This document shows, piece after piece, positions 3,933-32,878 of a DNA stretch of 46,907 nt. Every line of letters starts with the position of its first letter. The first letter of the stretch is position 1. The translations under genes were made by a program, and so were the position numbers. Source of the stretch: a virus (Duplodnaviria; Heunggongvirae; Uroviricota; Caudoviricetes); IMG/VR virus record IMGVR_UViG_2651869724_000014, one strand, 5' to 3'. The notes beneath the pieces were generated by a model, which was given only the letters and a program-made list of their open reading frames with translations, did no database searches and was not told where the DNA came from.

Positions 3933-3933
3933 G

Positions 3934-11008: not shown

Positions 11009-11009
11009 T

Positions 11010-11138: not shown

Positions 11139-11167
11139 TAAGCGAAGCAGCACCGCGAGGAATCAGT

Positions 11168-11726: not shown

Positions 11727-11784
11727 TTTCTGGTGACGTTTGGCGGTATCAGTTTTACTCCGTGACTGCTCTGCCGCCCTTTTT
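11727..11784 (+). ncRNA. dicF: DicF small RNA (ftsZ-targeting sRNA of Qin-type prophages)
   Basis: tttctggtgacgtttggcggtatcagttttactccgtgactgctctgccgcccttttt matches DicF as recalled, with terminal hairpin and T-run, between ydfC and dicB. Confidence 0.7.
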
Positions 11785-11953
11785 AAAGTGAATTTTGTGA
11801 TGCGGTGAATGCGGCTAAGCGCACGCGGAACAGTTAAAACCAAAAACAGTGTTATGGGTGGATTCTCTGTATCCGGCGTTAATTGTTAACTGGTTAACGT
11901 CACCTGGAGGCACCAGGCACCGCATCACAAAACTCATTGTTGAGGGCGCGAAA

Positions 11954-12142
11954 ATGAAAACGTTATTACCAAACGTTAATACGTCTGAAGGTTGTTTTGA
12001 AATTGGTGTCACTATCAGTAATCCTGTATTTACTGAAGATGCCATTAACAAAAGAAAACACGAACGGGAGTTATTAAATAAAGTATGCATTGTTTCAATG
12101 CTGGCCCGTTTACGTCTGATGCCAAAAGGATGTGCACAATGA
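11954..12142 (+). CDS. dicB: Cell-division inhibitor DicB
   Basis: 62-aa translation MKTLLPNVNTSEGCFEIGVTISNPVFTEDAINKRKHERELLNKVCIVSMLARLRLMPKGCAQ. Confidence 0.85.
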   Translation: MKTLLPNVNTSEGCFEIGVTISNPVFTEDAINKRKHERELLNKVCIVSMLARLRLMPKGCAQ

Positions 12143-12330
12143 ATCCAGTATTTGCACTTATTCTGACGGTTTTTCTTGTTTCCGGAGAGCCAGTTGATAT
12201 TGCAGTCAGTGTTCACAGAACAATGCAGGAATGTATGGCAGCAGCAACCGAACAGAAAATTCCAGGCAACTGTTATCCGGTCGATAAAGTTATTCACCAG
12301 GATAATAACGAAATCCCGGCAGGATTTTAA
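12139..12330 (+). CDS. ydfD: YdfD-like lysis-associated small protein
   Basis: 63 aa starting MNPVFALILTVFLVSGEPVD; ATG overlaps the dicB stop (caATGA). Confidence 0.65.
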   Translation: MNPVFALILTVFLVSGEPVDIAVSVHRTMQECMAAATEQKIPGNCYPVDKVIHQDNNEIPAGF

Positions 12331-12423
12331 AACAGCACCGTAATAAATATCCAGTTTCATTCTTATATGTCAGCAATGGCAGAGATTTGTTCACACTTAA
12401 ATCTGTGATGAGGTTTACCAATA

Positions 12424-14865: not shown

Positions 14866-14923
14866 TGTTCAACCCTAATTGCCGCTAACCGTATATAGTT
14901 AGCGGCGGTTATGAGATATAGCT

Positions 14924-15127
14924 ATGAGCAGCTTATTTTTAACCGAAGATGAATTGCTAATATTAACGGGCTGCAAATATGCAAGCCACCAGCGAAAATG
15001 GTTAATGGAAAACGGGCTTCCGTTCTATACCAATCGTAGTGGCAAACCGATTGTCAGCCGGGATCTATTTACCTGCAATAAAACTTTACCACCACGCGAG
15101 GTAGAGCCGAATTTTGGTGCGATCTGA
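14924..15127 (+). CDS. Excisionase-like protein (DUF4224-type)
   Basis: 67 aa, LFLTEDELLILTGCKYASHQRKWLMENGLPF, immediately upstream of int. Confidence 0.5.
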   Translation: MSSLFLTEDELLILTGCKYASHQRKWLMENGLPFYTNRSGKPIVSRDLFTCNKTLPPREVEPNFGAI

Positions 15128-16209
15128 TGGGAAGACGAAGGAAAAATCCTGAACACGAAAAATTACCTCCAAATGTATACCCAAATAAATATAGTTATGT
15201 ATGGAAACCAACATCCAGAGAATCTGTCACACTAACCGCCATCAAGGATGGTTTAGCTGCTTTATGGAAAAAGTATGAGGAAACTGTAAATAATCGCGAT
15301 CGTGCAATGACATTCGGTCGCTTGTGGGAAAAATTCCTCGCCAGCGCCTATTACAGTGACCTTAGTCCAAGAACACAAAAAGATTATCTGCAACATCAAA
15401 AAAAGTTGCTTGCCGTATTCGGTAAGGTACCAGCGGATTCCATAAAACCAGAACACATCCGTCGATACATGGACAAAAGAGGGGAGCAGAGTAAAACGCA
15501 AGCCAACCATGAAAAAAGCAGTATGTCCCGTGTTTACAGTTGGGGGTATGAGCGAGGGTACGTCAAGGCTAACCCATGTGCAGGTGTAAGTAAATTCAAG
15601 GCCAAAAACCGCGAACGATATGTAACCGACAAAGAATACCAGGCAGTATTAAGCGTTGCACCTCTTCCTGTTTTTATCGCAATGGAAATTGCCTATCTGT
15701 GTGCAGCGAGGGTTTCCGATGTGTTATCGCTGAAATGGGAACAGATTGGAAACGACGGGATATTCATCCAGCAAGGGAAAACCGGAAAAAAACAGATAAA
15801 AGCATGGAGTCCACGATTACAGGCAGCGATCGAAAAAGCAAAACAGTTACCAAAATCTGCCTATGTGATCAGCAATCAATACGGCAACCGATATATGTAC
15901 AAAGGCTTTAACGAAATGTGGGTAGAAGCAAGAAATCGTGCTGGAAAAATTTCAGGTATTTTAACCGACTTCACCTTTCATGATCTGAAGGCGAAAGGAA
16001 TTTCAGACTATGAAGGAAGCAGCCGGGATAAGCAACTTTTCTCTGGTCACAAAACCGAAGGGCAAGTGCTAATCTATGACAGGAAGGTTAAAGTTTCACC
16101 AACACTTGATGTCCCGTTACCTGAAAATATTCCAAGAAAATATTCCAAGAAAATATTCCAAGTAATTCCAAGTGTGATTTTTGTCACTGACTTAATGATG
16201 TGTAAGTGA
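15127..16209 (+). CDS. Lambdoid prophage tyrosine integrase
   Basis: 360 aa with tyrosine-recombinase catalytic region; ends 8 bp before the tRNA-Ser 3' end. Confidence 0.85.
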   Translation: MGRRRKNPEHEKLPPNVYPNKYSYVWKPTSRESVTLTAIKDGLAALWKKYEETVNNRDRAMTFGRLWEKFLASAYYSDLSPRTQKDYLQHQKKLLAVFGKVPADSIKPEHIRRYMDKRGEQSKTQANHEKSSMSRVYSWGYERGYVKANPCAGVSKFKAKNRERYVTDKEYQAVLSVAPLPVFIAMEIAYLCAARVSDVLSLKWEQIGNDGIFIQQGKTGKKQIKAWSPRLQAAIEKAKQLPKSAYVISNQYGNRYMYKGFNEMWVEARNRAGKISGILTDFTFHDLKAKGISDYEGSSRDKQLFSGHKTEGQVLIYDRKVKVSPTLDVPLPENIPRKYSKKIFQVIPSVIFVTDLMMCK

Positions 16210-16217
16210 TTGAATTT

Positions 16218-16307
16218 TGGCGGAGAGAGGGGGATTTGAACCCCCGGTGGAGTTGCCCCCACTCCGGTTTTCGAGACCGGTCCGTTCAGCCGCTCCGGCA
16301 TCTCTCC
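16218..16307 (-). tRNA. serU: tRNA-Ser (anticodon CGA)
   Basis: Minus-strand sequence GGAGAGATGCCGGAGCGG...CTCGAAAACC...GGTTCAAATCCCCCTCTCTCCGCCA: long variable arm, CGA anticodon loop, CCA end. Confidence 0.85.
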
Positions 16308-17298: not shown

Positions 17299-17374
17299 TC
17301 CTCTGTAGTTCAGTCGGTAGAACGGCGGACTGTTAATCCGTATGTCACTGGTTCGAGTCCAGTCAGAGGAGCCA
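17299..17374 (+). tRNA. asnT: tRNA-Asn (anticodon GTT)
   Basis: TCCTCTGTAGTTCAGTCGGTAGAACGGCGGACTGTTAATCCG...GGTTCGAGTCCAGTCAGAGGAGCCA, 76 nt. Confidence 0.85.
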
Positions 17375-17375
17375 A
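17352..17375. repeat. Island attL: direct repeat formed by tRNA-Asn 3' end
   Basis: gttcgagtccagtcagaggagccaa recurs at 45796-45820. Confidence 0.6.
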
Positions 17376-17553
17376 TTTAAAGAAAGCAGACGTTCACTGA
17401 CGTCTGTTTTCTGCATTTATATCAACTGGTTATCCCCTTCTTCAGGTTCACCCTCGTTCGTTAAAAACCGCTCGAATCCACACTACTTTGCTGGTAAAAA
17501 TGCTGGTAAAGCTGGTTCGATTTGCGTTTTACCAGCACGCGGAGGGAACCGTC

Positions 17554-18822
17554 ATGTCACTTACTGATACTAAAGTAAAAAATGCCAGACCAGCGGAAAA
17601 AGCCGTCAAGCTCACTGATGGATTTGGTCTCTACCTTCTTTTGCATCCCAATGGTTCAAAATACTGGCAGTTAGGCTATCGCTTCGATGGTAAACAGAAA
17701 GTGTTTTCCATTGGTGTTTACCCTGCGGTTTCTCTTGCTGATGCCAGACAACGACGTGATGAAGCAAAAAAGCTGCTTGCTCAGGGAATCGATCCTAACG
17801 CTAAAAAACAGGCTGATGAAAAAACTCTGCAGGAAAAGCGGGATAAAACCCGTTCGTTCCGTGTCGTCGCCAGAAGCTGGTTTGCCACCAAAACAAAATG
17901 GTCTGAAGATTACGCCGATACGGTATGGAAGCGCCTTGAGACCTATGTATTCCCGGATATTGGTGACAGCAACGTTTCAGATCTGGATACGGGTGATCTG
18001 CTTGTTCCGGTAAAAAAAGCAGAAACGCTTGGCTATCTTGAAATTGCCATGCGGATCAAGCAATACATCACTGCCATCCTGCGTCACGCCGTCCAGCAAA
18101 AACTTATGCGCCATAATCCTGCTTACGATATGGAAGGTGCTGTGCAGAAACCAGAGACTGAGCACCGTCCCGCACTGGAGCTGGAAGAGATCCCCCTGCT
18201 ACTTGAACGTATTGATGCCTACAAAGGCCGTGGACTTACCACACTGGCGATTAAACTCAATCTGTTGATTTTCATTCGTTCCAGTGAACTCCGCTATGCA
18301 CGATGGTCAGAAATCGACTTCAACAGTAAGTTATGGGTGATACCAGAAAAGCGTGAAGTGATTGAGCGCGTCAAATATTCCACGCGTGGCGCAAAAATGA
18401 AACGCCAGCACTTTGTTCCCCTTTGCAGGCAGGCTCTTAAGATACTGAAAGAGATCCGTCAGCTTACCTATGAAGAAGGTAATGACGCCGGATTAATTTT
18501 TACTGGATGTTATGACTCATTCAAACCCATGAGTGAAAACACCATCAACAAGGCGCTGCGTAAGATGGGCTATGACACCACGCAGGACATCTGCGGTCAT
18601 GGTTTCCGAACACTGGCATGTAGTGCTCTGATTGAATCAGGGCTATGGTCTAAAGATGCGGTAGAACTTCAGATGAGCCACAAGGAAAGCAACAGTGTGC
18701 GTGCTGCCTATACCCATAAGGCCAAACATCTTGAACAGAGAAGATTGATGTTACAGTGGTGGGCAGATTATCTTGATGCAAATCGGGATGGGATGGTCAG
18801 GCCGTTTGAGTTTGCTCAATAA
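17554..18822 (+). CDS. P4-type tyrosine integrase adjacent to tRNA-Asn
   Basis: MSLTDTKVKNARPAEKAVKLTDGFGLYLLLHPNGSKYWQLGYRF is a P4-integrase N-terminus; ATG 17554 with GGAGGG RBS. Confidence 0.85.
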   Translation: MSLTDTKVKNARPAEKAVKLTDGFGLYLLLHPNGSKYWQLGYRFDGKQKVFSIGVYPAVSLADARQRRDEAKKLLAQGIDPNAKKQADEKTLQEKRDKTRSFRVVARSWFATKTKWSEDYADTVWKRLETYVFPDIGDSNVSDLDTGDLLVPVKKAETLGYLEIAMRIKQYITAILRHAVQQKLMRHNPAYDMEGAVQKPETEHRPALELEEIPLLLERIDAYKGRGLTTLAIKLNLLIFIRSSELRYARWSEIDFNSKLWVIPEKREVIERVKYSTRGAKMKRQHFVPLCRQALKILKEIRQLTYEEGNDAGLIFTGCYDSFKPMSENTINKALRKMGYDTTQDICGHGFRTLACSALIESGLWSKDAVELQMSHKESNSVRAAYTHKAKHLEQRRLMLQWWADYLDANRDGMVRPFEFAQ

Positions 18823-18888: not shown

Positions 18889-19605
18889 CTAAATCGCTAA
18901 CAGTTCTGTTTTCCAGTATTCACTACCACTTTTATCACAGACATGTGAATATAATATCCTATCCATAATCCTAACAATTTCTTTAACATTATTTAGCTTA
19001 TCAATAACAGTATCTTTTGAAAGATTAATTGAAGAATATGAATGGGCTAACTCCGTGCGGCTATCAGAGAAAGACTGGAGCATGAACTCATAATCTTTTT
19101 TACCTTTCGCAGTCATTGCTTTTAATATATCTTTGATACCAAATCTATTAAAAAGAAGTTTGATATTTTTTTTGGAAGGATATTTTTTATCCATTATCAG
19201 CTGTTTTGGGACAATAACAGGCTTTACAGGAGAATTAGGTGACGATAACGCCTGAAGTTTATCCTTACACTTATTTAAGTCACTCATCATTATTGACTCA
19301 GAACCATGAGAAACGTAATTTATAAAATTTTTCTCTTGGTTTTTGAATAAAGAAAACAAGATAATTTCATCAGGTAGATGCGAAAGGCATCCGTTATTTT
19401 GGTTCAGCATGTCAATCCAATCTTCCAAAACATCTTTAATATAATCTTCGAATGCAGCAGAAACTCGAAATATCGCGTTATTATAAACACTATGTATAAT
19501 ATCTGTTCTTAATTCTTTTATTTTTGAAACATAACGAACCTGTTCAAGCAAATTGGAATGAATCTGCTCGAATTGTTTTCTAGATGCGCTTTTAATATAT
19601 GCCAT
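18889..19605 (-). CDS. Hypothetical partner of DUF262 protein (has an Rx4H motif, possible HEPN-like)
   Basis: 238 aa; start overlaps stop of upstream DUF262 gene at 19605; contains SRTELAHSY (R-x4-H); no HNH/DUF1524 motif seen. Confidence 0.35.
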   Translation of the reverse strand: MAYIKSASRKQFEQIHSNLLEQVRYVSKIKELRTDIIHSVYNNAIFRVSAAFEDYIKDVLEDWIDMLNQNNGCLSHLPDEIILFSLFKNQEKNFINYVSHGSESIMMSDLNKCKDKLQALSSPNSPVKPVIVPKQLIMDKKYPSKKNIKLLFNRFGIKDILKAMTAKGKKDYEFMLQSFSDSRTELAHSYSSINLSKDTVIDKLNNVKEIVRIMDRILYSHVCDKSGSEYWKTELLAI

Positions 19606-20720
19606 CAGTTGAAATACCGTTCAATGAAATTTTTCATTGTGCTAATACGATAATGAACCGATTGCGTCGCCGAAGTGCCAGAAGTAATCGACTCATTAAA
19701 ACGCTCCTCTGATGTTATTCTTTGAAACTCTATTAAGAAATCCTTAAGTTTTGTTGCATCAAGTTCGTTTATCATATCCTGATTAAATTTTGATACCATA
19801 AACCCGACAATTAGAGCATCAAATAAAGCAGAATTGAAATTTCTTACTTGAGGCTCTAAGTTTTCATTTAGAATTCTAAATGCTTTTTTACCAAACAATT
19901 TATTAATACAGTTTAATGCACCAAGAAATCTACTACGCCACTCCAAGGCAACATCAGGTTCAATATTTTGTTTTTCAGAACTAAAATCATTAAGGAATTT
20001 CTTTAATGGTTTTTTATATGGTGTCACAGAATATGAAAGTGCGAATGCTCTCAATATGAGTTCATTATTCTTCATTCGTGTGTCATTTTTAATTCCTGTT
20101 AAGTCTCTCCATACTTTCTCCTCACTTATTTCGTCAATCATAGTAAATAATGGACCATGATAAACTCCATGACGTACCTCCTGAGGATTTAATTGTACTG
20201 CACCTGTATTTATTCTTTCAAAAACATCAATTTTAATTTGAGGGTGAGTTTCTTTTAATATGGTTATGCATCTCAATGTGCGATTTAAAATATGCCTACG
20301 GAATCTCGCGTCCAGTGATGAAAACGAATTCCCCTCCAATTCTGGATATGCTGTCAATCCCTGTAATTCAAAACCATCCTCAATAAATAGTTTAATTGAA
20401 GTCAACCGTTGATTACCATCAATAACAGATAAACTCTCATCTTTCTCTTGGTTTAAATAAATAACAGGGATAGGACACTGGATTATTAAAGACTCAATTA
20501 ATCTTGATGCCTGCCCTCTACTCCAAACATATTTCCTTTGAAAATCAGGAATAAACACAGTACCATTTTTCAAATAGTCGACGAGTGTTGATATTGAAAA
20601 ATCGTAAGTCTCGGTATGCAATCGACGCTGCTCAGGGGGAATATCAACGATAGAAATATCATCATCATCAAATATTGGGAAAAGTTTATCCGCAAGTTTT
20701 TTGGCATCATTAACAGACAT
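19605..20720 (-). CDS. DUF262 (ParB/Srx-like) domain protein, GmrS-like
   Basis: IPDFQRKYVWSRGQASRLIESLIIQCPIPVIYL and VIDGNQRLTSI are the DUF262 signature blocks. Confidence 0.6.
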   Translation of the reverse strand: MSVNDAKKLADKLFPIFDDDDISIVDIPPEQRRLHTETYDFSISTLVDYLKNGTVFIPDFQRKYVWSRGQASRLIESLIIQCPIPVIYLNQEKDESLSVIDGNQRLTSIKLFIEDGFELQGLTAYPELEGNSFSSLDARFRRHILNRTLRCITILKETHPQIKIDVFERINTGAVQLNPQEVRHGVYHGPLFTMIDEISEEKVWRDLTGIKNDTRMKNNELILRAFALSYSVTPYKKPLKKFLNDFSSEKQNIEPDVALEWRSRFLGALNCINKLFGKKAFRILNENLEPQVRNFNSALFDALIVGFMVSKFNQDMINELDATKLKDFLIEFQRITSEERFNESITSGTSATQSVHYRISTMKNFIERYFN

Positions 20721-20921: not shown

Positions 20922-22199
20922 ATGTTAAAGAATACCAAGGAATGTGCCAACTCTGTATCAAGTGTGACGAATGCCATTGAAAGGGCCAAGGAACTATCAG
21001 GACTCGTCGTATCACGATTAAAATCCGAAGGCATGTATGCGGTTGGTAATGTGGATGGTTTATACCTTCGCATCCGAAATCAGTCCCGTGCATGGGTTCT
21101 TTGCGTGGCTATGGGAACCCGAATCAACAATCTCGGTAGAACAGTTCCAAGACGTTTGAATATGGGGCTTGGCCCTTACCCGGAAGTCTCCTTAGCCGAA
21201 GCGCGTGACAAAGCGCGTGAGCTACGTAAACAAATCCGTAATGGTATTAATCCCCTTCAAGAAAAACACGAACAAAAAGCCCGGCAGGAAATACTGGCCC
21301 GGAAGAAAAAGACCTTTGCCGAATGTTGTGAAGAAGTGCTGGAGGTCAAAGACAGTGAGATGAAGAACAAAAAACATCTCGCGCAATGGCGTTCCACACT
21401 GGAAACCTATGCCTACCCTTTCATTGGCAAAAAGGCCGTTAGTGAAATCACCAAAGTCGATCTTCTGGCAATACTGGAACCTATCTGGTTAACCAAGAAT
21501 GAAACTGCCAGTCGTCTACGTGGACGTATTGAAACAGTGATCGATTACGCCAAGGCCAAAGAATACTTTGAAGGTGATAATCCTGCCGCATGGAAAGGTA
21601 TGCTGAAACCTCTGTTGCCTCAGCCAAGTAAAGTTCAGATCACCAAACACCATGCGGCCCTTCCCTATAACCAGATCGGCTCTTTTATGAAAGAACTACG
21701 TGAACGAAGCGGCGTTTCTCCTCGTGCGCTTGAGTTTGCCATACTGACCGCAGCACGCTCAGGTGAAATTCGTGGTGCCGAGTGGTCAGAGATCGATCTT
21801 GAAGGTAAAACGTGGACCATACCTGCAAGCCGAATGAAAGCAGCGAAGGAGCATCGAGTTCCTCTGTCTGATGCTGCTGTTGCCTTGTTAAAAGCTTTAC
21901 CACGCTTTAAGGGTATCAGTTTTGTATTCCCTGCCACTCGGAAGGGACAACTCTCGGATACGGCTTTACTGGCAGTCCTAAAGCGAATGGGATATACCGA
22001 TTTAACACAGCATGGGTTTAGATCGACATTCCGTGATTGGGCTGGTGAAACGACCAACTATCCGCGTGAGGTAATTGAACATGCGTTAGCTCACCAGTTG
22101 GCAGATAAGGCAGAGGCTGCGTATCAACGTGGGACGTTATGGCCTAAGCGGGTGGCGTTGATGGATGAGTGGTCGGGGTTTTGTCTTGCCAATGTTTAG
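20922..22199 (+). CDS. Second tyrosine integrase (int2) of the nested element
   Basis: GLYLRI...YPEVSLAEARDKAREL arm-binding N-domain and a recombinase C-domain; distinct from int1. Confidence 0.7.
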   Translation: MLKNTKECANSVSSVTNAIERAKELSGLVVSRLKSEGMYAVGNVDGLYLRIRNQSRAWVLCVAMGTRINNLGRTVPRRLNMGLGPYPEVSLAEARDKARELRKQIRNGINPLQEKHEQKARQEILARKKKTFAECCEEVLEVKDSEMKNKKHLAQWRSTLETYAYPFIGKKAVSEITKVDLLAILEPIWLTKNETASRLRGRIETVIDYAKAKEYFEGDNPAAWKGMLKPLLPQPSKVQITKHHAALPYNQIGSFMKELRERSGVSPRALEFAILTAARSGEIRGAEWSEIDLEGKTWTIPASRMKAAKEHRVPLSDAAVALLKALPRFKGISFVFPATRKGQLSDTALLAVLKRMGYTDLTQHGFRSTFRDWAGETTNYPREVIEHALAHQLADKAEAAYQRGTLWPKRVALMDEWSGFCLANV

Positions 22200-22208
22200 C
22201 GGTCTGAT

Positions 22209-22503
22209 TGAAAACATGATCAACAAGGCGCTGCGTAAGATGGGCTATGACACCACGCAGGATATTTGCGGTCATGGTTTCCGCACACTGGCATGTAGTG
22301 CTCTGATTGAATCAGGGCTATGGTCTGAAGATGCGGTGGAACTCCAGATGAACCACAAGGAAAGCAACAGTGTTCGTGCTGCCTATACACATAAGGCCAA
22401 ACATCTTGAGCAGCGAAGGTTGATGCTACAATGGTAGGCAGATTTTCTTGATGCTAACTGGGATGGGATGGTCAGGCCGTTTGAGTTTGCTCAGAAACAA
22501 TAA
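22209..22503 (+). pseudogene. Displaced 3' fragment of an int1-like integrase gene
   Basis: Encodes INKALRKMGYDTTQDICGHGFRTLACSALIESGLW...HLEQRRLMLQW*, paralogous to int1 C-terminus, with a premature stop. Confidence 0.6.
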
Positions 22504-23176: not shown

Positions 23177-24097
23177 ATGATAGGAATAAAAATGATTTTA
23201 GTTATAACATCTAGCTTTGATAAAACAATTGATTACATAGTAAAAAAACATAGCATTAACAATTTTTACAGGTTAGATGTTGATAATTTCTCTGAATATA
23301 AATTTTCTTACACTAAAAAAGGATTCAGTATTGTTAATAAAAATAATAATGAATTGCTCGAGAGTGAATGCAGATCCATCTATTATAGAAAACCAACTCC
23401 TGAGAATATTATCAATAAAATTGATTCAAAATATCATAATCATTGCTTTCGAGAAGTATTCGCTTTTGTTGAAGGGATTGCTGAGTCGTTTACTGGAAAA
23501 TGCTTATCCAAGCCATCAATTATAAAAAGAGCAGATAACAAAGTATTGCAAGCAAAAACTGCAATTGATATTGGATTCACAATTCCTGATTTTATATTGA
23601 CAAATAATTTCGATTGTTTCAAAAACACTTTGACAATCAATAGCATTGTCAAACCGTTATCAAGTGGATTGATAGAAAATCAGAAAGAAAAGGAATTTGT
23701 TCAAACAAATATGGTTGACATGAATAAAAACACAGAAACATTAAAATATTGTCCAGCTTATTTTCAATCGTATACAAAAAAAGAATTCGAGGTGAGATCA
23801 ACATTCATAAATGGTAAAGATTATTCGGTAAAAATAATATCTAAAAATAAAATTGACTGGAGAAAAGACAATAACGAAATATTCTATTCAACAATAAAAA
23901 TGCCTGATACTATAAAAGAAAAATGTCTGAGGTATATGTCAGTCATGAATATTTCTTTTGGATGTTTTGATTTTATAGTTTTTGATGGTGAATGGTTCTT
24001 CTTAGAGATGAATGCAAATGGTCAATGGGCATGGCTAGAAAATGAAACGAATATTAATGTGTCAAGTGAGTTAGTGAGGTTTTTAAATGAAGTATAA
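23177..24097 (+). CDS. ATP-grasp family ligase
   Basis: VKPLSSG and C-terminal FGCFDFIVFDGEWFFLEMNANGQWAWLE are ATP-grasp-like blocks. Confidence 0.55.
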   Translation: MIGIKMILVITSSFDKTIDYIVKKHSINNFYRLDVDNFSEYKFSYTKKGFSIVNKNNNELLESECRSIYYRKPTPENIINKIDSKYHNHCFREVFAFVEGIAESFTGKCLSKPSIIKRADNKVLQAKTAIDIGFTIPDFILTNNFDCFKNTLTINSIVKPLSSGLIENQKEKEFVQTNMVDMNKNTETLKYCPAYFQSYTKKEFEVRSTFINGKDYSVKIISKNKIDWRKDNNEIFYSTIKMPDTIKEKCLRYMSVMNISFGCFDFIVFDGEWFFLEMNANGQWAWLENETNINVSSELVRFLNEV

Positions 24098-24941
24098 TTT
24101 CATTTACTTTATTATAAAATTATTAAACTTTTCATTATTATTCCACACATCATTAGATGAGAATTTTGATACTATTGAAAAAAGAAATGTTATTAATTCC
24201 ACGTCATTAAGAGTATCTTTATTATGTTTTCCTGTGGGGAGTAAAATAATATATTTATTAACTTTCAATAAAAAATCAAACCGTATTTTGGATAAATCTA
24301 ACTTCCAGTTTTTTACGAGCATACACTATGATACACTTTGCCCAAGAATATCGGGCACAAAAATTGAAGAATATGTCATGGCGTATAGTCAATATATTAA
24401 ATCAATTCTACCTAAAAGAAGGAAGGAACAAGAAGATTTTTTAAAGCAGCGCCTTTCCGAAAATAACGATAGTTTATCTAATCTTCAAAGTAAGATAACA
24501 CATTATACTACTATCACTATTGCCCTCACAGGGGCAGTGGTTTATCTACAAACCATTCTACCATCCGCAAATACAAATTTTGCAATAAGATTTATTTCCT
24601 ATTATTTATTTTTTATATTGCTTGTTGATATAATTAATTTATTTCTTTTTCTAAGAAAAGGAATGATGGTAAGTAGTTTTTCTCAATCAAGTTTTAAATC
24701 ATTAAAATTTGATAACAGTAATTATGCCTTAACGAAGGCTATATATCGTGACTGGATAGCAAGAAAAGATGACGTCAGATATTTTGCAGGTATAGTTAGA
24801 AATGCCGAAAAATATCTATACAGATCGATTTTAGTTGGAATCACGCTATACATGTTTTCCATTTCACTGCAATATTATAGCGATAATCCAGTGAATGAAA
24901 TCATATTCACGCCGTCAGGCATGTTTTTAGCTGTAAATTAA
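24087..24941 (+). CDS. Polytopic membrane protein, translationally coupled to the ATP-grasp gene
   Basis: 11-bp overlap with the ATP-grasp gene; hydrophobic segments (TITIALTGAVVYLQTILP, FISYYLFFILLVDIINLFLFL, ILVGITLYMFSISLQYY). Confidence 0.45.
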   Translation: MKYNFIYFIIKLLNFSLLFHTSLDENFDTIEKRNVINSTSLRVSLLCFPVGSKIIYLLTFNKKSNRILDKSNFQFFTSIHYDTLCPRISGTKIEEYVMAYSQYIKSILPKRRKEQEDFLKQRLSENNDSLSNLQSKITHYTTITIALTGAVVYLQTILPSANTNFAIRFISYYLFFILLVDIINLFLFLRKGMMVSSFSQSSFKSLKFDNSNYALTKAIYRDWIARKDDVRYFAGIVRNAEKYLYRSILVGITLYMFSISLQYYSDNPVNEIIFTPSGMFLAVN

Positions 24942-24952
24942 AAGGATATAAT

Positions 24953-25297
24953 ATGAAACCGTATACTATGCTCTATAGTGAATCTTTCGAAATAAACGCA
25001 TCAACAATTTCAAGTAAAACAAACTCTACCGTAAAAACATTTACCACAGAACCTAATGATGAAGATTATCTCAACACTTGGACAACGCATACAAGAGTCA
25101 TAGAGAACCAAGATGAGGATTACAGTTTAGCCCCCAGCAACTGTGAAAGAAAATACGAAATATCTAATGAAAAGCAGTCTGCTATGGATACATTTTTTAC
25201 AGAATCTATTGAAAATAATGATGATGATTTTATAGTATGTAGAACATTTGTAACAAATGTCGTTGAATCAGGTGATGATGATTTCTATTTTAACTAA
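24953..25297 (+). CDS. Acidic Thr/Asp/Glu repeat peptide, candidate graspetide precursor
   Basis: 114 aa with repeated blocks TFTTEPNDEDY, ENQDEDY, TFFTESIENNDDDF, TFVTNVVESGDDDFYF; AAGGA-type RBS; terminator follows. Confidence 0.4.
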   Translation: MKPYTMLYSESFEINASTISSKTNSTVKTFTTEPNDEDYLNTWTTHTRVIENQDEDYSLAPSNCERKYEISNEKQSAMDTFFTESIENNDDDFIVCRTFVTNVVESGDDDFYFN

Positions 25298-25411: not shown

Positions 25412-26875
25412 TTATCTACACGCATATAACCTTCTTATATTACTATAACAGTGCTCGTTCTTACTACCACTACAACGTCGTTCATCGTATTCAGCGATTA
25501 AAGTTCCAGATATATAACCAAACTGAGGACTATACGTTGATCCCGGGCAGGCACATGTCCCAGTGTCACTATTCGGTATAACGCATTTATAACCAGAGAT
25601 TTGATCTGTTATTGTGATAAAAATACCTTTCAGACCATCACCACTTGCTGTCTGCCATTTACCACTGACACACGATAACATCCTACCCGCACTGTCTCGC
25701 CCCACCAGACCATTAGGCGTATATTTCGCATTTAACGTTGCCTGACCATTCAAATGAAGATATTCACCTGCTTTGATTCTGCCTGTTGATTCAATTGTTC
25801 CGTTGGATTTTATCGTTCCGGCAGTAAGATTACCTGAAGCATAAATATTACCCGCATTATTCATGTAAGCTTTAACTGTTTTCCCGGTTCCTACACCAAC
25901 AGTCCCTGACGCATATAAATCATAGGTGCGAACACCGCCAGCCCAGCCAGCAGGCAGATCGTTTGGATTAAGTCCATTCGTCGCGATACGACTACCAAAC
26001 TTCGCCAGACCTGTTGTTGAAAGCGTGTTCAGATAGGTATCGGATTTTACCCTCAGATTGTTGTTGATATTTACAGGACCATTAAGGGTCGAGGTTCCAC
26101 CCACACTCAGATCTGATGCAACAGACGCATTACCCGTTGTCTTAAGTGCTCCCGTTGTTGTTGTTCCTGATGCCGTCATATCTTTGATGTTTTTGATGCT
26201 CTTACCACCAAGATTCAGATCACCCGTCATCGGCAACGTCCCATCACGGCGCAGGTAAACAGAATACATTGAAGAGTTATACCCCACGCGGTAAGCCAGC
26301 AATCCACCACCCGTGATGTTATTGTAGCTGTTAGAGTTCTCACTCCACTGACCACCATAACCAGAAGCGATCTTGGTGCTTCTGCTCATACCACCATCAA
26401 CACCTGCCGCCTGAACCGCTTTACCTAACAGGTCATAACGAATACGACCACCTTCTTCCCACGGGCTGGCGGTTGTTATAAGGCCATTAATCACGTAATT
26501 AGGCGCGGTTCCTGAACGCTTTAACACAATTTTGTAAGATGCTTTTTGCGCGTTAGTTCCTGTATAGCCTACAGGCAACAAACCTTCATTAATTAACGTC
26601 TGGTAAGTGATTTCACAGCCATTAGACGTACAGGTTCTTGGCCCCGGATCGCTGCTTTGATTATTGGATGATGACAGTGTGGATATCTTGTCATAGCGAA
26701 TACTGATATAGCGGTTAACCGCTTCTCCAAGCTGTTTAATCTGTGTTCCGACATTATCAGCCAATACCGCTTCCTGATTGTTTCTCATATCCTGAAATTT
26801 CATAAAAGCGATAAGCGTTCCAATACCTAAAACAATACTGACTTCCAGTAAGGTAAATCCTTTATTCTTTATCAT
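25412..26875 (-). CDS. pilV: Type IVb minor pilin / tip adhesin PilV-like
   Basis: N-terminus MIKNKGFTLLEVSIVLGIG is a prepilin motif; 487-aa Gly/Thr/Ser/Asn-rich protein directly downstream of a pilS-like gene. Confidence 0.65.
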   Translation of the reverse strand: MIKNKGFTLLEVSIVLGIGTLIAFMKFQDMRNNQEAVLADNVGTQIKQLGEAVNRYISIRYDKISTLSSSNNQSSDPGPRTCTSNGCEITYQTLINEGLLPVGYTGTNAQKASYKIVLKRSGTAPNYVINGLITTASPWEEGGRIRYDLLGKAVQAAGVDGGMSRSTKIASGYGGQWSENSNSYNNITGGGLLAYRVGYNSSMYSVYLRRDGTLPMTGDLNLGGKSIKNIKDMTASGTTTTGALKTTGNASVASDLSVGGTSTLNGPVNINNNLRVKSDTYLNTLSTTGLAKFGSRIATNGLNPNDLPAGWAGGVRTYDLYASGTVGVGTGKTVKAYMNNAGNIYASGNLTAGTIKSNGTIESTGRIKAGEYLHLNGQATLNAKYTPNGLVGRDSAGRMLSCVSGKWQTASGDGLKGIFITITDQISGYKCVIPNSDTGTCACPGSTYSPQFGYISGTLIAEYDERRCSGSKNEHCYSNIRRLYACR

Positions 26876-26927
26876 AATTATCTCCCTGTTTTAGCAATAA
26901 GAAAGAAAAGGGCTTACGCCCTCTTCA

Positions 26928-27485
26928 TTAAATAGACGTGAAAACTAATGTATTACTTGTGGCATTCGTACATGCTGCTGCCGTAGCTGCCACATCGAGT
27001 GTTCCTCCTGCGGCTTTAACAACCTTGGTTCCAACCGTGGTAATGTAGAAATTACCTGCTGCCGCTGTTGCAATCTTCACACATTCCGCTGCTGGCACAT
27101 TATCGTAGGTGATAGTGAAAGAAGAGCCAGTCGCTGATGACGGACCAGTCGCTGCCGCAGCCAGCGTCACATTACCTTTAAAGGCATTGATGGGTTTAGC
27201 TGCCGTTCCTGACCCACTTAACATATTGTCAGGGAATATTTTTGCCTGAACAGCCACAGTATTTGTCAGGCCAGTAAAGCTTGATGCCGACGTGTATAAC
27301 GCTTTAACACCTGCCTGTATGGTGGCAATGTTATTGGATTCTGCCTGTGCTCTTTGTGAAGCCTGAACCTTGGGATACACAATAAAAGCCGCTACCACTA
27401 ATGCAGCAATGATGCCCAAAACAAGTAGTAGTTCGAGTAGTGAGAAACCTTTCTTGCTTTTTCTTTTGTTATTTAATAAAACCAT
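26928..27485 (-). CDS. pilS: Type IVb major prepilin PilS-like
   Basis: Long leader then KKGFSLLELLLVLGIIAALVVAAF prepilin motif; 185 aa. Confidence 0.65.
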   Translation of the reverse strand: MVLLNNKRKSKKGFSLLELLLVLGIIAALVVAAFIVYPKVQASQRAQAESNNIATIQAGVKALYTSASSFTGLTNTVAVQAKIFPDNMLSGSGTAAKPINAFKGNVTLAAAATGPSSATGSSFTITYDNVPAAECVKIATAAAGNFYITTVGTKVVKAAGGTLDVAATAAACTNATSNTLVFTSI

Positions 27486-27882
27486 TATTATCTCCTTTTT
27501 TGTTTTAATGATAACTTCTGTTATAACGCTTCTCTCATATCTGGCAATAGAAATAACAAGATATATTTAACTCTGTCTGACAGACGGATGAATTAAAAAA
27601 GGCAAAGATTTCTCTTTGCCTTCCGGGAGATTTAAAAACAACATTTGTTATCACTACTACTGTCATTATTACTTCCTCATGGGATATTTATCATATCTGA
27701 TAAAAAAGAAATAATAACGTTCACTACATAAAGATAAAAATTAACAGATTACTGGTCGAACAGAACGCATGATTGAAAAGGAAAAAATATTAATAAAGGA
27801 TTATCCTGCGTTCTGTTCTTTTATATAGATAACAGATAATAATCAGATATCAATACCTGACTCAAAATAAATTTAAAGATTT

Positions 27883-28197
27883 TTATTTTTGTCTTCCCTC
27901 CATTTGCGCGAGAAACTTCCTGCCTGCTTTTATATATGTTATTTTTTCAATATCATTCAGGTCAGATGCTGAAAGCAAAATCCCCATAACGAGTTCTTTA
28001 TCCACCTGTTCGATATCGCAATGCATAGCTTTAGCTACTTCCGCACCAAGTATAATCTTTAGCCTTGTTTCAACTTTCTTTCGCTCTGATTTCTCCAGAG
28101 ACTTAAGGCGATTAAGTTCAAGCTGAGCAAAAGCAACCTTTTGCTTTAATGTTTTTTCTGTTCTTGGTCTTTTTATATTATCATCCATAGTTATCAC
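27883..28197 (-). CDS. Hypothetical protein divergent from mobA (possible mobilisation accessory protein)
   Basis: Assignment by position only. Confidence 0.25.
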   Translation of the reverse strand: MITMDDNIKRPRTEKTLKQKVAFAQLELNRLKSLEKSERKKVETRLKIILGAEVAKAMHCDIEQVDKELVMGILLSASDLNDIEKITYIKAGRKFLAQMEGRQK

Positions 28198-28479
28198 CTC
28201 TTGTTGTTTACACGTATTTAATTATCACAAAGAGAAATAACGTCAAATTTACACCATTTTGTTAGAGAGAATGATTCTGATACATTTCTTTATAAATATG
28301 TGCAACGCATATGATAGTATTCACTAACCAAAAACATCTGGCACTCTCCGCGTTACTTATTTTTACGCATTTGTGCTTTTATTTTCACCTGTCAATTTTA
28401 AACTCTATTTTCCAATCTCAACCTGTAAATTGTGCAACACATAACACTCTCTGTTTTATTAGTTTTTTTTCATCAAATT

Positions 28480-28560
28480 TAGCTATCCCGCCTTACGGCG
28501 GGAATAATTAATACTTCTATTGCCCTTACGGGCCTTTTCTTTACTCTTTTTGTCCTGTGG
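28480..28560. promoter_or_regulatory. Candidate oriT region
   Basis: Inverted repeats cccgcc-ttac-ggcggg (28485-28502) and gccc-ttac-gggc (28531-28542) upstream of the relaxase gene. Confidence 0.25.
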
Positions 28561-28834
28561 ACGTGAAACCTACACCTTTAATCCAGTTTGCGCCGCTTAA
28601 CCCGGCGTATTATTTTACAACCATACATATATTTCGTATTAATTAATAAGAGGGGCATTTTACATTGGCTTATTTTCTTAAAGACAATGCCCACCTATAC
28701 ACTGCTACGCAGTGTGTGGGGTCTACCGACGGTTGCCTGCCGCAGGCTAAAAGCAAAACCAAGGTCAACGTCAACCCCGAAGTTTTTCTGGCGAAAAACT
28801 AACAGCAGCATTTTTATTTGAGGTTATATTTTTA

Positions 28835-30304
28835 ATGGCGATTTTCCATCTGGATTTTAAAATTGTGAAACGAAGCGAGGGCATGACTTCCGTTGCGAAA
28901 GCTGCCTACCATGCCCGTACACGTATTACAGATGATCGCATTGGCGAAACATTTGATTTCAGCCACAGAACAGATCTTCATGGTCATATTATATTAGCGC
29001 CCGTTTCCGCACCTGCTCATATTATTGAAAGCTCCTCAGCACTCTGGAATGAAGTTGAAAGAGTGGAACGCCAGAACAACGGTCAAACAGCCCGTTATTT
29101 TGATGTCGCTATTCCCGTAGAACTCAACAATGATGACAAGAAAAAATTGGTTGCCGAATACTGCCAGAAGAACTTTGTTGATAAAGGAATGATTGCTGAT
29201 ATCGCATTCCATGACTTAGACAGTAAGAACCCACACGCTCACGTCATGTTAACCCTGAAAACCATCGGGCCCGAAGGCTTCGGTAAAAAAGACAGAACTT
29301 GGAATGATAAGAAGATGGTTGTTCAGTGGCGTGAGTCGTGGGCCACGATGTCAAACAGCTACCTTGAAGCCGCAGGCAGTGAAGAACGTATCGATCACCG
29401 TTCTCTCAGAACTCAATGTGCTGATGCCCTTGCTCAGGCAGAAGAAGCATTCAGTGCTGAAGAGAAAGCATTCTGGCTTGCCAAAGCAACGGAAACAAAC
29501 CGCCCGGCAATGCAGCGTGTTCATCGTGCTAAATGGAATGATACCGAGTCTCAGGAACAACGAGCTGCTGAACAAGCTCAACGCGATCATCAAATTGAGG
29601 AAGCAAAGAAGGTCTACGCCACATTCAGTGAGCTACCACTGGAAATCGTTGTTGATGTTCGCTCTTACTCTGTTTACCAGCTTCCTGAACCGGAAGAGAT
29701 CGTTCTCCCTGACTACCCGGCAACAACAAAGCAGCAACCGATTCATGCAGAGTCAGAACCATACAGAAGACCAGCCGTAAAATCTTACCATGCCCCCAAT
29801 AAGGTCAGTAAAGTTGGTGCTGCAGCTAAGAAATCCCCTGTTCTGGTTGCACCTGAACCAAATAAATCCACTAAACTGAAAAACCCTTCTTCTCAAAACA
29901 CCAGAGCGATGAAGCGTGCTCCTGTGAGGAGTAGGAAACAGACCAAGCCCCGCCAGAATGGTTTGTTTAAACGTTTCACGCTACTGATAGTAGGATATAT
30001 AAGAGAGAAATTTATATGGGCCAGAATGAAACCCGATACCACTGATGCTGACCATGATAAGCGTATCGCAGAGAACTATGTCTATGATGAAGTGCTGGGT
30101 GTCAATGTTCCACGCTCAGAGTTTGAAAAACGTACCAAATTTAACGATAGTAACTATAAATTAACACCTAATGAGATCAAGCGTTTCCCAAGCCGTCCTA
30201 AGCGAGTTCAATTAGAGTCAGAGAGCGGTATGGATGTCCTCCCTAAAAATAATCAATTTAACTCGTCAAAAATAAACTTCGTCAAACCAAATTTTAGATC
30301 ATAA
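28835..30304 (+). CDS. mobA: MobA/MobL-family relaxase
   Basis: MAIFHLDFKIVKRS...AKAAYHAR (catalytic Tyr context) and NPHAHVMLTLK (His-rich motif) parallel RSF1010 MobA. Confidence 0.7.
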   Translation: MAIFHLDFKIVKRSEGMTSVAKAAYHARTRITDDRIGETFDFSHRTDLHGHIILAPVSAPAHIIESSSALWNEVERVERQNNGQTARYFDVAIPVELNNDDKKKLVAEYCQKNFVDKGMIADIAFHDLDSKNPHAHVMLTLKTIGPEGFGKKDRTWNDKKMVVQWRESWATMSNSYLEAAGSEERIDHRSLRTQCADALAQAEEAFSAEEKAFWLAKATETNRPAMQRVHRAKWNDTESQEQRAAEQAQRDHQIEEAKKVYATFSELPLEIVVDVRSYSVYQLPEPEEIVLPDYPATTKQQPIHAESEPYRRPAVKSYHAPNKVSKVGAAAKKSPVLVAPEPNKSTKLKNPSSQNTRAMKRAPVRSRKQTKPRQNGLFKRFTLLIVGYIREKFIWARMKPDTTDADHDKRIAENYVYDEVLGVNVPRSEFEKRTKFNDSNYKLTPNEIKRFPSRPKRVQLESESGMDVLPKNNQFNSSKINFVKPNFRS

Positions 30305-30412: not shown

Positions 30413-31933
30413 ATGATTAGTGAAATCACAACAAATGGCACTAAAATTAAACTAAGAAATAATAGTGCTAATGATATTAATATTTATGATATGGATTCTT
30501 TATCTTTACTTATTGGTATAAATGGTTCAGGGAAGACAAAATCCTTATGTAGCATAATTAACTATTTCTTTCCTAAAAATAACATGCAATTAACAGGCGA
30601 TTGTACAATATTAAACTCTAGCGGTGAAAGAATAGATCATACTGAAATTAGAAACTGGGGAGTTATATATTTCACCCCATTACCATTTAGACCAAAGTTG
30701 AATATTAGAGATAGTAGGTTTATTAACGCATCTCCAAGCTTGAATGGAAAAAATACTGTATTTGACCTTATCGAATACAAGGATTTAATATCTGACTTTG
30801 ATATTTATCCAAAAGTTGTTGCCATGAAGATGACAAACATTAGCAAAGTTGCAAGATTAATACTTAATATCGCTTTAAATAATAAAGATCTTAATCAGAA
30901 CAGCATACTACTGAATCACGGTCTCCTTGATATTTTGTCATTACGTGCAAAAATTGATGATAATATAGATAATGACGATTCAGACACTATAAAATATAGT
31001 ACCAATAAAAATATTCAAGCAGAAATTGATTCTATTATGCAGCGTTGCTCCGCGCATCTGATTGATGAAATACTTCATCGCGCAGGTGAAGAAAAACTCT
31101 TTTCCATATTTAGCATAATAGATTGGGCAAGTACAAAAAAACAGTTCAGTGATAACGTAGTAATTCCATTATTAAACAAACACTTAAATTTAAACATCCG
31201 TTCAAATAGAAAACTCAGAGAGACTAAATTATATTTAGAATGTGAAAGCAAAATAGATAGTTTACTTAATATTATAAAATATGAGGTAAAAAACCATGAA
31301 ATCATAAAGGATTCAAGACTTAATGAATCAACTTTAAGGTTAGAATTCGAAATAGACCCTTACGAAGGACAAAGGTTATTAACAAGATACAATTTGAATG
31401 ATATTTTTAAAATTGATTTTTCTGATATGAGTTCTGGGCAAATTGCTATTCTAGCTCAAATTGGCGCCATCTCTGACTCTATTACTAAACTGTCAGATAG
31501 AGGTATCAGATCAATACTACTATTAATAGATGAAGGGGACGCTTTTTTACATATCGATTGGCAAAGGAAATATATTTCTAATTTAAATAAAATGCTAGGC
31601 TCATTAAAAACATCTCTGGGCATAGATAATTTACAACTTATTCTAGCCTCGCACTCTCCATTGTTAGCCACAGACGTTCCCAAAGACTTTATAACTAGAC
31701 TACCAATTGAAAATGCTACGTTAAGTGGTTTTGCATCTCCTCTTTATATTTTACTAAATGAATCTTTTGGAACTAAAACCATTGGAGAATTTGCAACAAA
31801 TAAAATTGAAACCATCATCGACAAAATACCTAATAGAATACTGACTGAAAAAGATTATTACCTTATAAATAATATAGACAACCCTCTAATAAAAAGCGAA
31901 ATCGAACGCTTAATTATGCAGCATAAGGATTGA
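30413..31933 (+). CDS. ptuA: Septu PtuA-like ABC/SMC-type ATPase
   Basis: Walker A GINGSGKT, signature-like MSSGQ, Walker B LLLIDEGDAF, followed by H-loop ASHSP; 506 aa. Confidence 0.65.
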   Translation: MISEITTNGTKIKLRNNSANDINIYDMDSLSLLIGINGSGKTKSLCSIINYFFPKNNMQLTGDCTILNSSGERIDHTEIRNWGVIYFTPLPFRPKLNIRDSRFINASPSLNGKNTVFDLIEYKDLISDFDIYPKVVAMKMTNISKVARLILNIALNNKDLNQNSILLNHGLLDILSLRAKIDDNIDNDDSDTIKYSTNKNIQAEIDSIMQRCSAHLIDEILHRAGEEKLFSIFSIIDWASTKKQFSDNVVIPLLNKHLNLNIRSNRKLRETKLYLECESKIDSLLNIIKYEVKNHEIIKDSRLNESTLRLEFEIDPYEGQRLLTRYNLNDIFKIDFSDMSSGQIAILAQIGAISDSITKLSDRGIRSILLLIDEGDAFLHIDWQRKYISNLNKMLGSLKTSLGIDNLQLILASHSPLLATDVPKDFITRLPIENATLSGFASPLYILLNESFGTKTIGEFATNKIETIIDKIPNRILTEKDYYLINNIDNPLIKSEIERLIMQHKD

Positions 31934-31945
31934 AGGTCTTCATAT

Positions 31946-32878
31946 ATGATTATTTCAATTAAAAACAACTGGGAAAAAGCAATAAAATTACATACACATT
32001 ATTTAAATAATTTGATATGCAACTTTTTAAATAAATCCATTCCTAGTTCTGAAGGACGAGACGAAGCTAAAAAATTTATTCTAGATGTGCATCACCTATT
32101 AATACTTGCCGGTAAACAAGATATATTGGAGAGTATTGATATATATAGAGAGTACAAACACAGATTGTCAATAACGCCGGATATATCGAAGCAATTCGAC
32201 AAAGAAATAAGATCTATTTTTAATTACAATAAGTTTGTTAGGAAAACAGGATCATGGAATGCATATACTCTATGTAAAAAATCAATAAGCAGAACATGTC
32301 CGTATTGCAATCAAGCATATGCTTTTTCGATACAAAAAAAGAATCGCGGTTTTCGTCCTACATTAGATCATTTTTATAGTAAGGATGACTTTCCTCACCT
32401 TGCATTGGTAATTAACAATTTAATCCCAAGTTGTAGTTCATGTAACTCAAGCCTTAAAGGCACAATTGATTTCTTCGCAAATGAACATTTAAACCCACTG
32501 TGGGATGATGAAGTTATAAATTTCGTTTTAACTCATGAGGATGGTGTTTTAACATTAATAGACGGAATGATTTCATCACCAGAAAAAATAAAAATAAACA
32601 TATCTTACGATACTACAAATATTTCAATTAAAAACACAGTAAATACTTTTTTGATAAACGAAAGATATCAAGAAATGACAATAGAAGCAATAGAATTTGC
32701 AACTGCCAAATTAAATCTTGAATATGCCGTATCTACTGGAATATCATATTTCAAAAATAACTCAGAAAGTAGTATATTAAGATTTGACAAAAGAGAATAT
32801 AAAAAATATTTGCTCGGTAAATTATATTTAGATATATATAATAAAATGCCAAATGCAAATATAGTTAACACTCGTTAA
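31946..32878 (+). CDS. ptuB: Septu PtuB-like HNH endonuclease
   Basis: HNH-type motifs CPYCNQ, LDHFYSK, NNLIPSCSSCNSSLKG; 13 bp downstream of the ATPase gene. Confidence 0.65.
   Translation: MIISIKNNWEKAIKLHTHYLNNLICNFLNKSIPSSEGRDEAKKFILDVHHLLILAGKQDILESIDIYREYKHRLSITPDISKQFDKEIRSIFNYNKFVRKTGSWNAYTLCKKSISRTCPYCNQAYAFSIQKKNRGFRPTLDHFYSKDDFPHLALVINNLIPSCSSCNSSLKGTIDFFANEHLNPLWDDEVINFVLTHEDGVLTLIDGMISSPEKIKINISYDTTNISIKNTVNTFLINERYQEMTIEAIEFATAKLNLEYAVSTGISYFKNNSESSILRFDKREYKKYLLGKLYLDIYNKMPNANIVNTR

Follow-up and report, generated by a model that had tools for sequence, protein, structure and literature searches.

The window analyzed here is a DNA stretch of 46,907 nucleotides filed as IMG/VR virus record IMGVR_UViG_2651869724_000014 (Caudoviricetes), and the genes in question lie at positions 25,412 to 30,304. 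They are pilV and pilS, which encode homologues of the pilins of the R64 thin type IVb pilus, a traD-like gene, and the relaxase gene mobQ in divergent orientation (Table 1). A first-pass annotation had read the region as a remnant conjugation or mobilization kit, in which pilS and pilV stood without the rest of the pil operon beside a MobA relaxase with upstream inverted repeats and a candidate origin of transfer (oriT), and had taken the island for a degraded integrative and conjugative element (ICE) or mobilizable element; truncated or non-functional pilin genes, or a relaxase without catalytic residues, were to speak against it. The gene calls were borne out: all four are open reading frames (ORFs), none is truncated, and their Pfam matches are far beyond chance. 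The inverted repeats do lie upstream of the relaxase gene, between traD and mobQ, where positions 28682-28810 are strongly constrained.

The four genes are part of a 28.4-kb island, which is inserted at a tRNA-Asn gene and bounded by a perfect 25-bp direct repeat (GTTCGAGTCCAGTCAGAGGAGCCAA) starting at 17351 and 45796. This repeat was found nowhere else in the window, and none was expected by chance. A P4-type tyrosine integrase (integrase 1) adjoins one att site, and a putative recombination directionality factor (RDF) with a DUF6387 companion gene lies at the other. The RDF was assigned from its position and from the annotation of its counterpart in Escherichia coli E2348/69 as a helix-turn-helix regulator, and the ORF had no Pfam or NCBIfam match. 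Further island genes are a RepL-like gene, a full-length H-NS paralogue and a gene for an 80-aa H-NST protein (43167-43409). Among the 38 island ORFs scanned, none contained a type IV secretion system (T4SS) or coupling-protein domain by Pfam, NCBIfam or PADLOC. Neither the mating-pair T4SS nor the coupling protein of an ICE was found among the island ORFs. The gene content is that of an integrative and mobilizable element (IME), with its own integrase, att sites and relaxase/oriT, and with neither T4SS nor coupling protein.

Table 1. Features of the island and of the pilV-mobQ region (positions in the window).
Feature	Position	Strand	Description
tRNA-Asn (GTT)	17299-17374	+	ARAGORN
attL	17351-17375		Last 24 bases of tRNA-Asn and one base more
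Integrase 1, P4-type tyrosine integrase	17488-18822	+	Adjoins attL; Pfam Arm-DNA-bind_3, Phage_int_M, Phage_integrase
Integrase 2, second P4-type integrase	20922-22199	+	Full length; 26% identity to integrase 1
pilV, prepilin-type minor pilin/tip-adhesin homologue	25412-26875	-	487 aa; Pfam Shufflon_N 2.2e-12
Terminator-like hairpin between pilS and pilV	26905-26926	-	Consensus scan: 9-bp stem, 5 GC pairs, then T-rich tail
pilS, type IVb-like major pilin	26928-27485	-	185 aa; PF08805 1.7e-28, Bundlin 1.3e-8, N_methyl 3e-6
Perfect 10-bp inverted repeat with minus-strand T-run	27599-27622	-	Between traD and pilS
traD-like, small Ti-plasmid-type relaxosome accessory protein	27883-28197	-	104 aa; PF06412 1e-10; divergent from mobQ
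Three GC-rich hairpins	28484-28499, 28522-28533, 28589-28609	+	Partly conserved in alignments
Sigma-70-like mobQ promoter	28659-28688	+	TTTACA-18-GACAAT; consensus scan; both hexamers in conserved alignment columns
Candidate oriT core, structured block	28682-28812	+	H1, H2, H3, GTCAAC direct repeat, H4
mobQ, MOBQ (MobA/MobL) relaxase	28835-30304	+	489 aa; PF03389 5.4e-55
Putative RDF, AlpA-like small DNA-binding protein	44196-44414	-	72 aa; adjoins attR
DUF6387 gene, RDF companion in EARL islands	44565-45440	-	PF19924 9.6e-77
attR, second copy of 25-bp repeat	45796-45820	+	

Region 25412-30304 was 99.9% identical to the chromosome of E. coli O127:H6 E2348/69 (NC_011601.1), with six single-nucleotide polymorphisms in 5.5 kb, and the genes of the module are annotated likewise in that strain. 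The likeness holds for the whole island, with 99.8-99.9% identity over 17275-39309 and 41936-45823. The 2.6 kb in between (39310-41935) is absent from the island of E2348/69, which is named IE3; it completes an ORF truncated in E2348/69 and adds a DUF4756 gene (39908-40387), an H-NS paralogue (40545-40949) and a 212-aa ORF. The flanks of the island are also from E. coli (99.3%). They place it beside serU and mtfA here and beside yeeO in E2348/69, so the island occupies another Asn-tRNA copy in another E. coli strain. The exact arrangement of island and flanks was found in none of the complete E. coli genomes of our collection.

IE3 was assigned to the Enterobacterales-associated ROD21-like (EARL) islands by Pina-Iturbe et al. 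2018 (PMC6035254). In that study 52 of 56 islands, including IE3, had a conserved backbone of pilin(s), TraD, a MOBQ relaxase, a P4-type integrase and an RDF, with no T4SS, and a gene of unknown function of ~843 bp was described beside the RDF. Excision was demonstrated by PCR for IE3 (nested PCR in E2348/69) and for ICEKp258.2, and the authors regarded the islands as probably mobilizable (PMC6035254), which was restated in the 2023 ICEKp258.2 paper. The island in the window shares with ROD21 (Salmonella Enteritidis), IE3 (enteropathogenic E. coli (EPEC) E2348/69) and ICEKp258.2 (Klebsiella pneumoniae ST258) the tRNA-Asn site with direct repeats, the P4-type integrase at one end and the RDF at the other, where the DUF6387 gene fits the published description. 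It also shares the type IV pilin, the PilV-like pilus-related protein, TraD, the MobA/MobL relaxase (all four matched by Pfam and nearly identical to those of IE3), the H-NS/H-NST homologues and the RepL-like gene. It differs from IE3 in the Asn-tRNA copy, the extra 2.6 kb, an intact mobQ (stop at codon 25 in IE3) and the exchange C385Y in PilV. We consider it highly likely that the island is an IME of the EARL family and a close variant of IE3. This backbone has already been described.

As the first-pass annotation had claimed, pilS and pilV stand alone. In a tblastn search of the 46.9-kb window with R64 PilL, M, N, O, P, Q, R, T and U there were no matches, and PilS and PilV were the only thin-pilus proteins found. 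The same was true of related loci. A scan with a PilV profile, one genome per species, gave 54 loci in about 20 genera of Enterobacterales, 33 of them with full 10-kb flanks, and homologues of the R64 assembly genes were found within 10 kb of pilV in none of the 54. The complete pil operon of a thin pilus, with secretin PilN, ATPase PilQ, platform PilR and peptidase PilU, was thus not found. Because no peptidase, ATPase, platform or secretin is encoded, PilS and PilV could be processed and assembled only by machinery from elsewhere.

Such a gene set could consist of decaying leftovers of an R64- or SPI-7-like ICE that has lost pilL-R, pilT, pilU and its T4SS. The homology of PilS and PilV to R64 thin-pilus proteins and the missing assembly genes agree with this, and so do the point lesions of single lineages (the stop at MobQ Tyr25 in E2348/69, PilV C385Y here and a pilV pseudogene in S. 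Enteritidis). We regard decay as very improbable, since the same minimal set recurs in about 20 genera and the 33 full-flank loci include no fuller version. Of these 33 loci, 27 had TraD upstream of pilV on the same strand, 27 had a divergent MobQ, 24 had a P4-type integrase downstream and 17 had a PilS-type pilin. In nine loci pilV follows traD on the same strand at a distance of 92-700 bp, and in 27 of the 33 the two genes are no more than 6 kb apart. About half of the species-level loci have pilV without pilS; in Yersinia aleksiciae, for example, traD is followed directly by pilV, and there is nothing pilin-like between relaxase and integrase. Therefore PilV, and not the major pilin, is the constant partner of TraD and MobQ. 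Within E. coli, the 5.5-kb module was present in 828 of 5,426 complete genomes, in 522 of them at 80% coverage or more, and every copy was chromosomal. In B2-type strains it lies in an island at serU with ~94% identity, and the four genes are annotated as intact.

Comparison with the alleles of the serU islands gave ratios of non-synonymous to synonymous substitution (dN/dS) of 0.06-0.07 for the constant part of pilV, 0.08-0.14 for its tail, 0.07-0.12 for pilS, 0.12-0.13 for traD and 0.30 for mobQ, and no stop codons. By these substitution ratios, pilS and pilV are under strong purifying selection; a ratio of about 0.07, and the lack of stop codons in the other alleles examined, also stand against decay. 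So do the large PilV clusters with full-length representatives, which comprise 2,036 sequences in E. coli, 856 in Salmonella and 843 in Klebsiella, and the fact that neither an sfx site nor Rci is present. PilV proteins of plasmids (IncI and related) are only ~25% identical over full length, and a search for close relatives on plasmids with a complete pil operon found none, so a recent origin from an ICE or plasmid by decay is not supported. From the recurrence across genera and the purifying selection we take the gene set for a stable design. Of the first-pass description, "mobilizable" is therefore kept. "Degraded" does not agree with a module that is the EARL backbone, is present in 522 genomes and about 20 genera and is under purifying selection, and "remnant" has to be dropped, as the same gene set is the published backbone of 52 of 56 islands (PMC6035254).

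Only one plasmid record contained a near-full module (CP088875.1, 127427-134455). This 393-kb E. coli sequence is typed as non-mobilizable and may be a chromosomal fragment or contain an integrated island, rather than represent a true plasmid context. Some related islands have a second prepilin-type gene of ~370-400 codons downstream of pilV (loci L013, 13170-14387; L024, 12005-13231; L042, 14485-15633; L050, 11806-13020) or a duplicated pilS (Pluralibacter, L047, 8164-8892). A variant of the serU island (E. coli FDAARGOS_1373; L057, 25521-28169; L059, 2206-4854) encodes an 882-aa protein of the DotA/TraY family, with no other T4SS gene nearby. This family is a component of T4SSs of the IncI/Dot-Icm type. 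Neither the window nor any of the 54 related loci has this gene.

Both pilins carry class-III signal peptides with Gly at -1, Phe at +1 and Glu at +5. PilV begins with MIKNKG/FTLLE (the slash marks cleavage), and PilS with MVLLNNKRKSKKG/FSLLE, which gives a 13-residue leader; PilS has C-terminal cysteines at positions 135 and 172. PilS showed ~33-34% identity to R64 PilS and matched bundlin (1ZWT) at 3e-4. Residues 1-407 of PilV form a constant region, 27% identical to that of R64 PilV and ending at the same C..SG.W junction, and residues 408-487 form a Cys-rich variable tip domain. A search of PilV against PDB by sequence gave no match at E ≤ 1. The likeness to the thin pilus of R64 (IncI1) thus covers PilS, the PilV constant region, the junction and the signal peptide with E5. 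The differences are the cleavage site (G/F here, G/W in R64), the lack of pilI-pilR, pilT, pilU, Rci and sfx, and the setting: the island genes are chromosomal and linked to a MOBQ relaxase, whereas R64 has a MOBP relaxase.

In the alignment of the PilV family, G6, F7 and E11 are invariant, and similarity collapses right after C402-x-x-G405-x-W407, so that the tail begins at the junction where the R64 shufflon exchanges its tips. The tails have 18-166 residues and fall into 48 types among 108 homologues, some with collar domains of phage tail fibers. Two E. coli PilV proteins (P0007 and P0008) have constant parts that are ~90% identical and tails that are unrelated, and the synonymous divergence (dS) of the pilV tail is 0.66, three times that of the constant part (~0.2). 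Unrelated tails on nearly identical constant parts, together with the raised dS, point to tail exchange by recombination. R64 has seven copies of sfx; in the island there was no sfx site near pilV and no Rci, and the island junction differs from sfx at 8 of 18 positions. The window as a whole had three weak sfx-like matches, all far from pilV and with five mismatches each. The combination that makes up a shufflon (sfx repeats, alternative 3' segments of pilV and Rci) was not found, and without sfx and Rci each island has one fixed PilV tip.

Two hairpins lie on either side of pilS. The one between pilS and pilV is possibly an attenuator that governs how much major pilin is made relative to minor pilin. 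The inverted repeat between traD and pilS likely terminates traD transcription, and pilS-pilV would then be transcribed as a unit of their own. Together they suggest graded expression.

The relaxase gene product scored 252 bits against the NCBIfam equivalog model for MobQ (cut-off 200). The relaxase domain spans residues 1 to about 200 and is followed by a C-terminal part of 280 residues that lacks any known domain. The catalytic residues are all present: Tyr25 and His126, His134 and His136, that is, an N-terminal catalytic tyrosine and the three-histidine metal-binding motif of MOBQ enzymes, align with the catalytic residues of NES of pLW1043 (4HT4, 3.5e-24) and MobA of R1162 (2NS6, 4e-8). 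The protein resembles the MOBQ relaxases MobA of RSF1010/R1162 and NES of pSK41/pLW1043 in its N-terminal HUH-type domain with Tyr25 and H...NPHxH, and its first 200 residues resemble the relaxase domain of Ti-type TraA. However, it has neither the primase domain of RSF1010 MobA nor the helicase domain of Ti TraA. In Ti plasmids a small TraD is likewise encoded divergently across the presumed oriT (traCDG/traAFB), which is the arrangement seen here.

The spacer was compared in an alignment of 260 bp upstream of mobQ from 33 loci (~20 genera). The block at 28682-28812 contained 63 columns that were invariant in the 33 loci, while the N-terminal relaxase domain of MobQ is just 56-80% identical in most of them. 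In hairpin H1 (28690-28720) the outer stem is CCCAC/GTGGG, with a bulge of 4 nt and an inner stem of 7-8 bp, and its apex exists in three self-complementary versions (CTGC/GCAG, CTCAC/GTGAG and TTGC/GCAA). These variants were listed sequence by sequence and not by formal pair counting, because the aligner had put the apex out of register. H2 is a short stem with GTC...GAC in most loci and CCC...GGG in four. The block also holds GCCTG-CCG-CAGGC, the GTCAAC direct repeat and the invariant hairpin H4 (28781-28800), AGTTTTTC-N4-GAAAAACT, followed by CTAACAGCAGCA; the consensus after H4 is CTAA.A.CAGCA. The predicted DNA fold of the block gave z = -2.6 against shuffled sequence, and Rfam scans of the window and of 27400-28900 returned nothing in the traD-mobQ spacer. 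From its conservation and structure, with compensatory variants in the stems, this block is the best candidate for the oriT. Likeness to the oriTs of RSF1010, pSK41 or Ti plasmids gave no convincing nick site.

The candidate has points against it, as the canonical MOBQ nick core GTGCGCC (GTGCGCC/CT, cut at the slash) is absent from the block, which may instead be a promoter and 5'-untranslated region (5'-UTR) element. The predicted -35 and -10 hexamers are conserved and end at 28688, so H1 to H4 would lie within the transcript and the block would also be the leader of mobQ. The oriT would then have to be sought elsewhere, for example at the terminator-like hairpin 28589-28609, 90 bp upstream of the block, which contains TTGCGCC, a sequence that we take to resemble the MOBQ nick core. 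That the ~130-bp block is only the mobQ promoter with a structured 5'-UTR or operator seems to us unlikely. The TTGCGCC hairpin is not kept in close relatives (loci L010, L004 and L020), but the block is, and no Rfam family matches it. In small MOBQ systems the oriT often overlaps the relaxase promoter, as is established for R1162, so the roles of oriT and promoter are not mutually exclusive.

Several observations weigh against the view that this island carries a working mobilization and pilin module. Position 385 of PilV (window 25722) is Tyr here and Cys in E2348/69 and in all 108 homologues. The partner of Cys385 in a disulfide bond is likely the invariant Cys402, and C385Y is possibly a loss-of-function change that marks a lineage. 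The exact window proteins are on record on 49 contigs for PilV, 82 for MobQ and 209 for PilS, so they are natural alleles of a lineage and not errors. Both pilin genes are full length and the relaxase has its catalytic residues, so the findings that were to speak against the first-pass annotation are mostly absent; the change of PilV at an invariant cysteine is a partial exception. In S. Enteritidis P125109 pilV has been described as a pseudogene, and no pilus made of PilS/PilV has been observed. An AlphaFold2 model of PilV from a 20-sequence alignment was too poor for use (mean pLDDT 49, pTM 0.27). On the relaxase side, codon 25 of mobQ (window 28909) is TAC here and TAG in E2348/69, and the gene of that strain is flagged as a pseudogene in RefSeq because of this internal stop at the catalytic Tyr25; IE3 of E2348/69 can thus excise but probably cannot nick its own oriT. 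Deletion of the relaxase gene SEN1980 of ROD21 left the transfer frequency of the island unchanged (PMC3976249), so relaxase-dependent mobilization is unproven for the EARL family. Transfer of ROD21 required a pSLT-type plasmid.

With these reservations, we propose that the parts identified and compared here work together as an IME. The P4-type integrase and the RDF would recombine the 25-bp attL and attR and release the island as a circle; the parts are present in the window, and excision is known from the literature cited above. We infer that the MOBQ relaxase, helped by the Ti-type TraD, would then bind and nick an oriT in the traD-mobQ spacer, most likely in the block 28682-28812, which overlaps the mobQ promoter and leader. 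As the island has neither coupling protein nor T4SS, the relaxase-DNA complex would depend for its export on a conjugative plasmid or ICE in the same cell. PilS and PilV might be processed and assembled by the type IV pilus (T4P) or type II secretion system (T2SS) of the host, or by the type IVb pilus of the helper. PilV, accompanied by PilS in roughly half of the family members, is a maintained part of the backbone, and we suppose that these proteins would serve as a portable filament subunit and tip adhesin and so determine the surfaces to which the cell attaches.

What such a filament is for can be read in two ways. The strongest rival to a role in transfer is that PilS and PilV are cargo of benefit to the host, an adhesin or colonization factor built by a chromosomal T4P or T2SS and unrelated to DNA transfer, which we consider plausible, if tentatively so. 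The short signal peptides with G/F and E5 are typical of type IVa pilins and T2SS pseudopilins, the PilV tails are hypervariable and some have phage tail-fiber domains, and ROD21 used an IncF-type plasmid without a type IV pilus for its transfer. The EARL authors favor host benefit (PMC10763509), and transposon mutants of SEN1976 were attenuated in mice according to a passage of PMC6968874 that cites this result. On the other hand, the linkage of pilV and traD is tighter than expected of free cargo, even where pilS is missing, and R64 PilS and PilV, the nearest characterized homologues, serve mating. There is also no experimental evidence for the assembly of PilS/PilV by host systems. In view of the tight traD-pilV linkage and the R64 precedent, a role in transfer stays open.

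The second reading gives PilV, and PilS in those islands that have it, a part in the transfer of the island itself, which would supply its own tip adhesin, and sometimes its own major pilin, to the thin pilus of a helper plasmid or the T4P of the host. We hold this to be rather doubtful. If it were true, the IME would redirect mating-pair formation to recipients of its choosing, and the hypervariable tail of PilV would be a determinant of recipient specificity whose diversity comes from recombination between islands and not from a shufflon. For type IV pili, this would correspond to what SGI1 does when it swaps subunits of the IncC mating apparatus. SGI1 is an IME without a T4SS of its own that encodes homologues of TraN, TraH and TraG. 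The two elements are alike in that each encodes surface-exposed subunits of an apparatus it cannot build alone; they differ in that the subunit substitution and the helper of SGI1 (IncC) are known experimentally, whereas PilS and PilV are known here from genes.

The remaining genes of the island are arranged around this module. Most related loci have a homologue of integrase 1, with 74-90% identity, downstream of pilV. Integrase 2 is followed at 22205-22493 by a 289-bp duplicate (92%) of the 3' end of integrase 1 (18530-18818), which suggests that the integrase end of the island grew by tandem accretion or underwent replacement. RefSeq annotates the stretch of E2348/69 that matches 20922-22493 as two integrase pseudogene fragments, and no internal att copy was found between the two integrases within three mismatches. 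Between the integrases, 18889-20720 encodes a HEPN (RiboL-PSP) and a DUF262/GmrSD_N protein (PADLOC NsnA 5.6e-83, PD-T4-2_A 9e-44). The serU islands hold an HNH and AAA ATPase pair in this slot, which makes it an integrase-proximal defense hot spot. Directly downstream of pilV (23177-25297) are three genes with a GC content of 29%, for an MvdC/MvdD-type ATP-grasp protein, a 284-aa membrane-like protein and a 114-aa very acidic protein. They are kept at the same place in the serU islands and may be a graspetide-like or defense cassette; PADLOC gave no match for this cluster. Immediately after mobQ (30413-32878) there is an AAA ATPase (AAA_21/AAA_15) and HNH pair that matches the PADLOC candidate PDC-M62 (A 5e-23, B 1.5e-41) and, more weakly, Septu PtuA/PtuB. 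Outside the island, window positions 1-16209 are a lambdoid prophage at tRNA-Ser (serU, 16218-16307) with its integrase at 15127-16209; Rfam matches in it were DicF (11728-11779), sok (5195-5369), STnc100 (716-906) and AgvB (654-715).

EARL islands are present in EPEC, B2 E. coli, S. Enteritidis, S. Typhi and K. pneumoniae ST258, and their cargo includes defense systems, H-NS antagonists and virulence genes. Once the pilV-mobQ region is recognized as the backbone of this family, it need not be mistaken for junk. An orphan adhesin-type pilin is under selection beside DNA-processing genes in about 20 genera, which bears on the spread of these islands or on their benefit to the host. For mapping of the oriT, the comparison of spacers offers a concrete 130-bp target, and MobQ Y25stop in E2348/69 and PilV C385Y in the present island are natural point knock-outs that can serve as ready-made controls.

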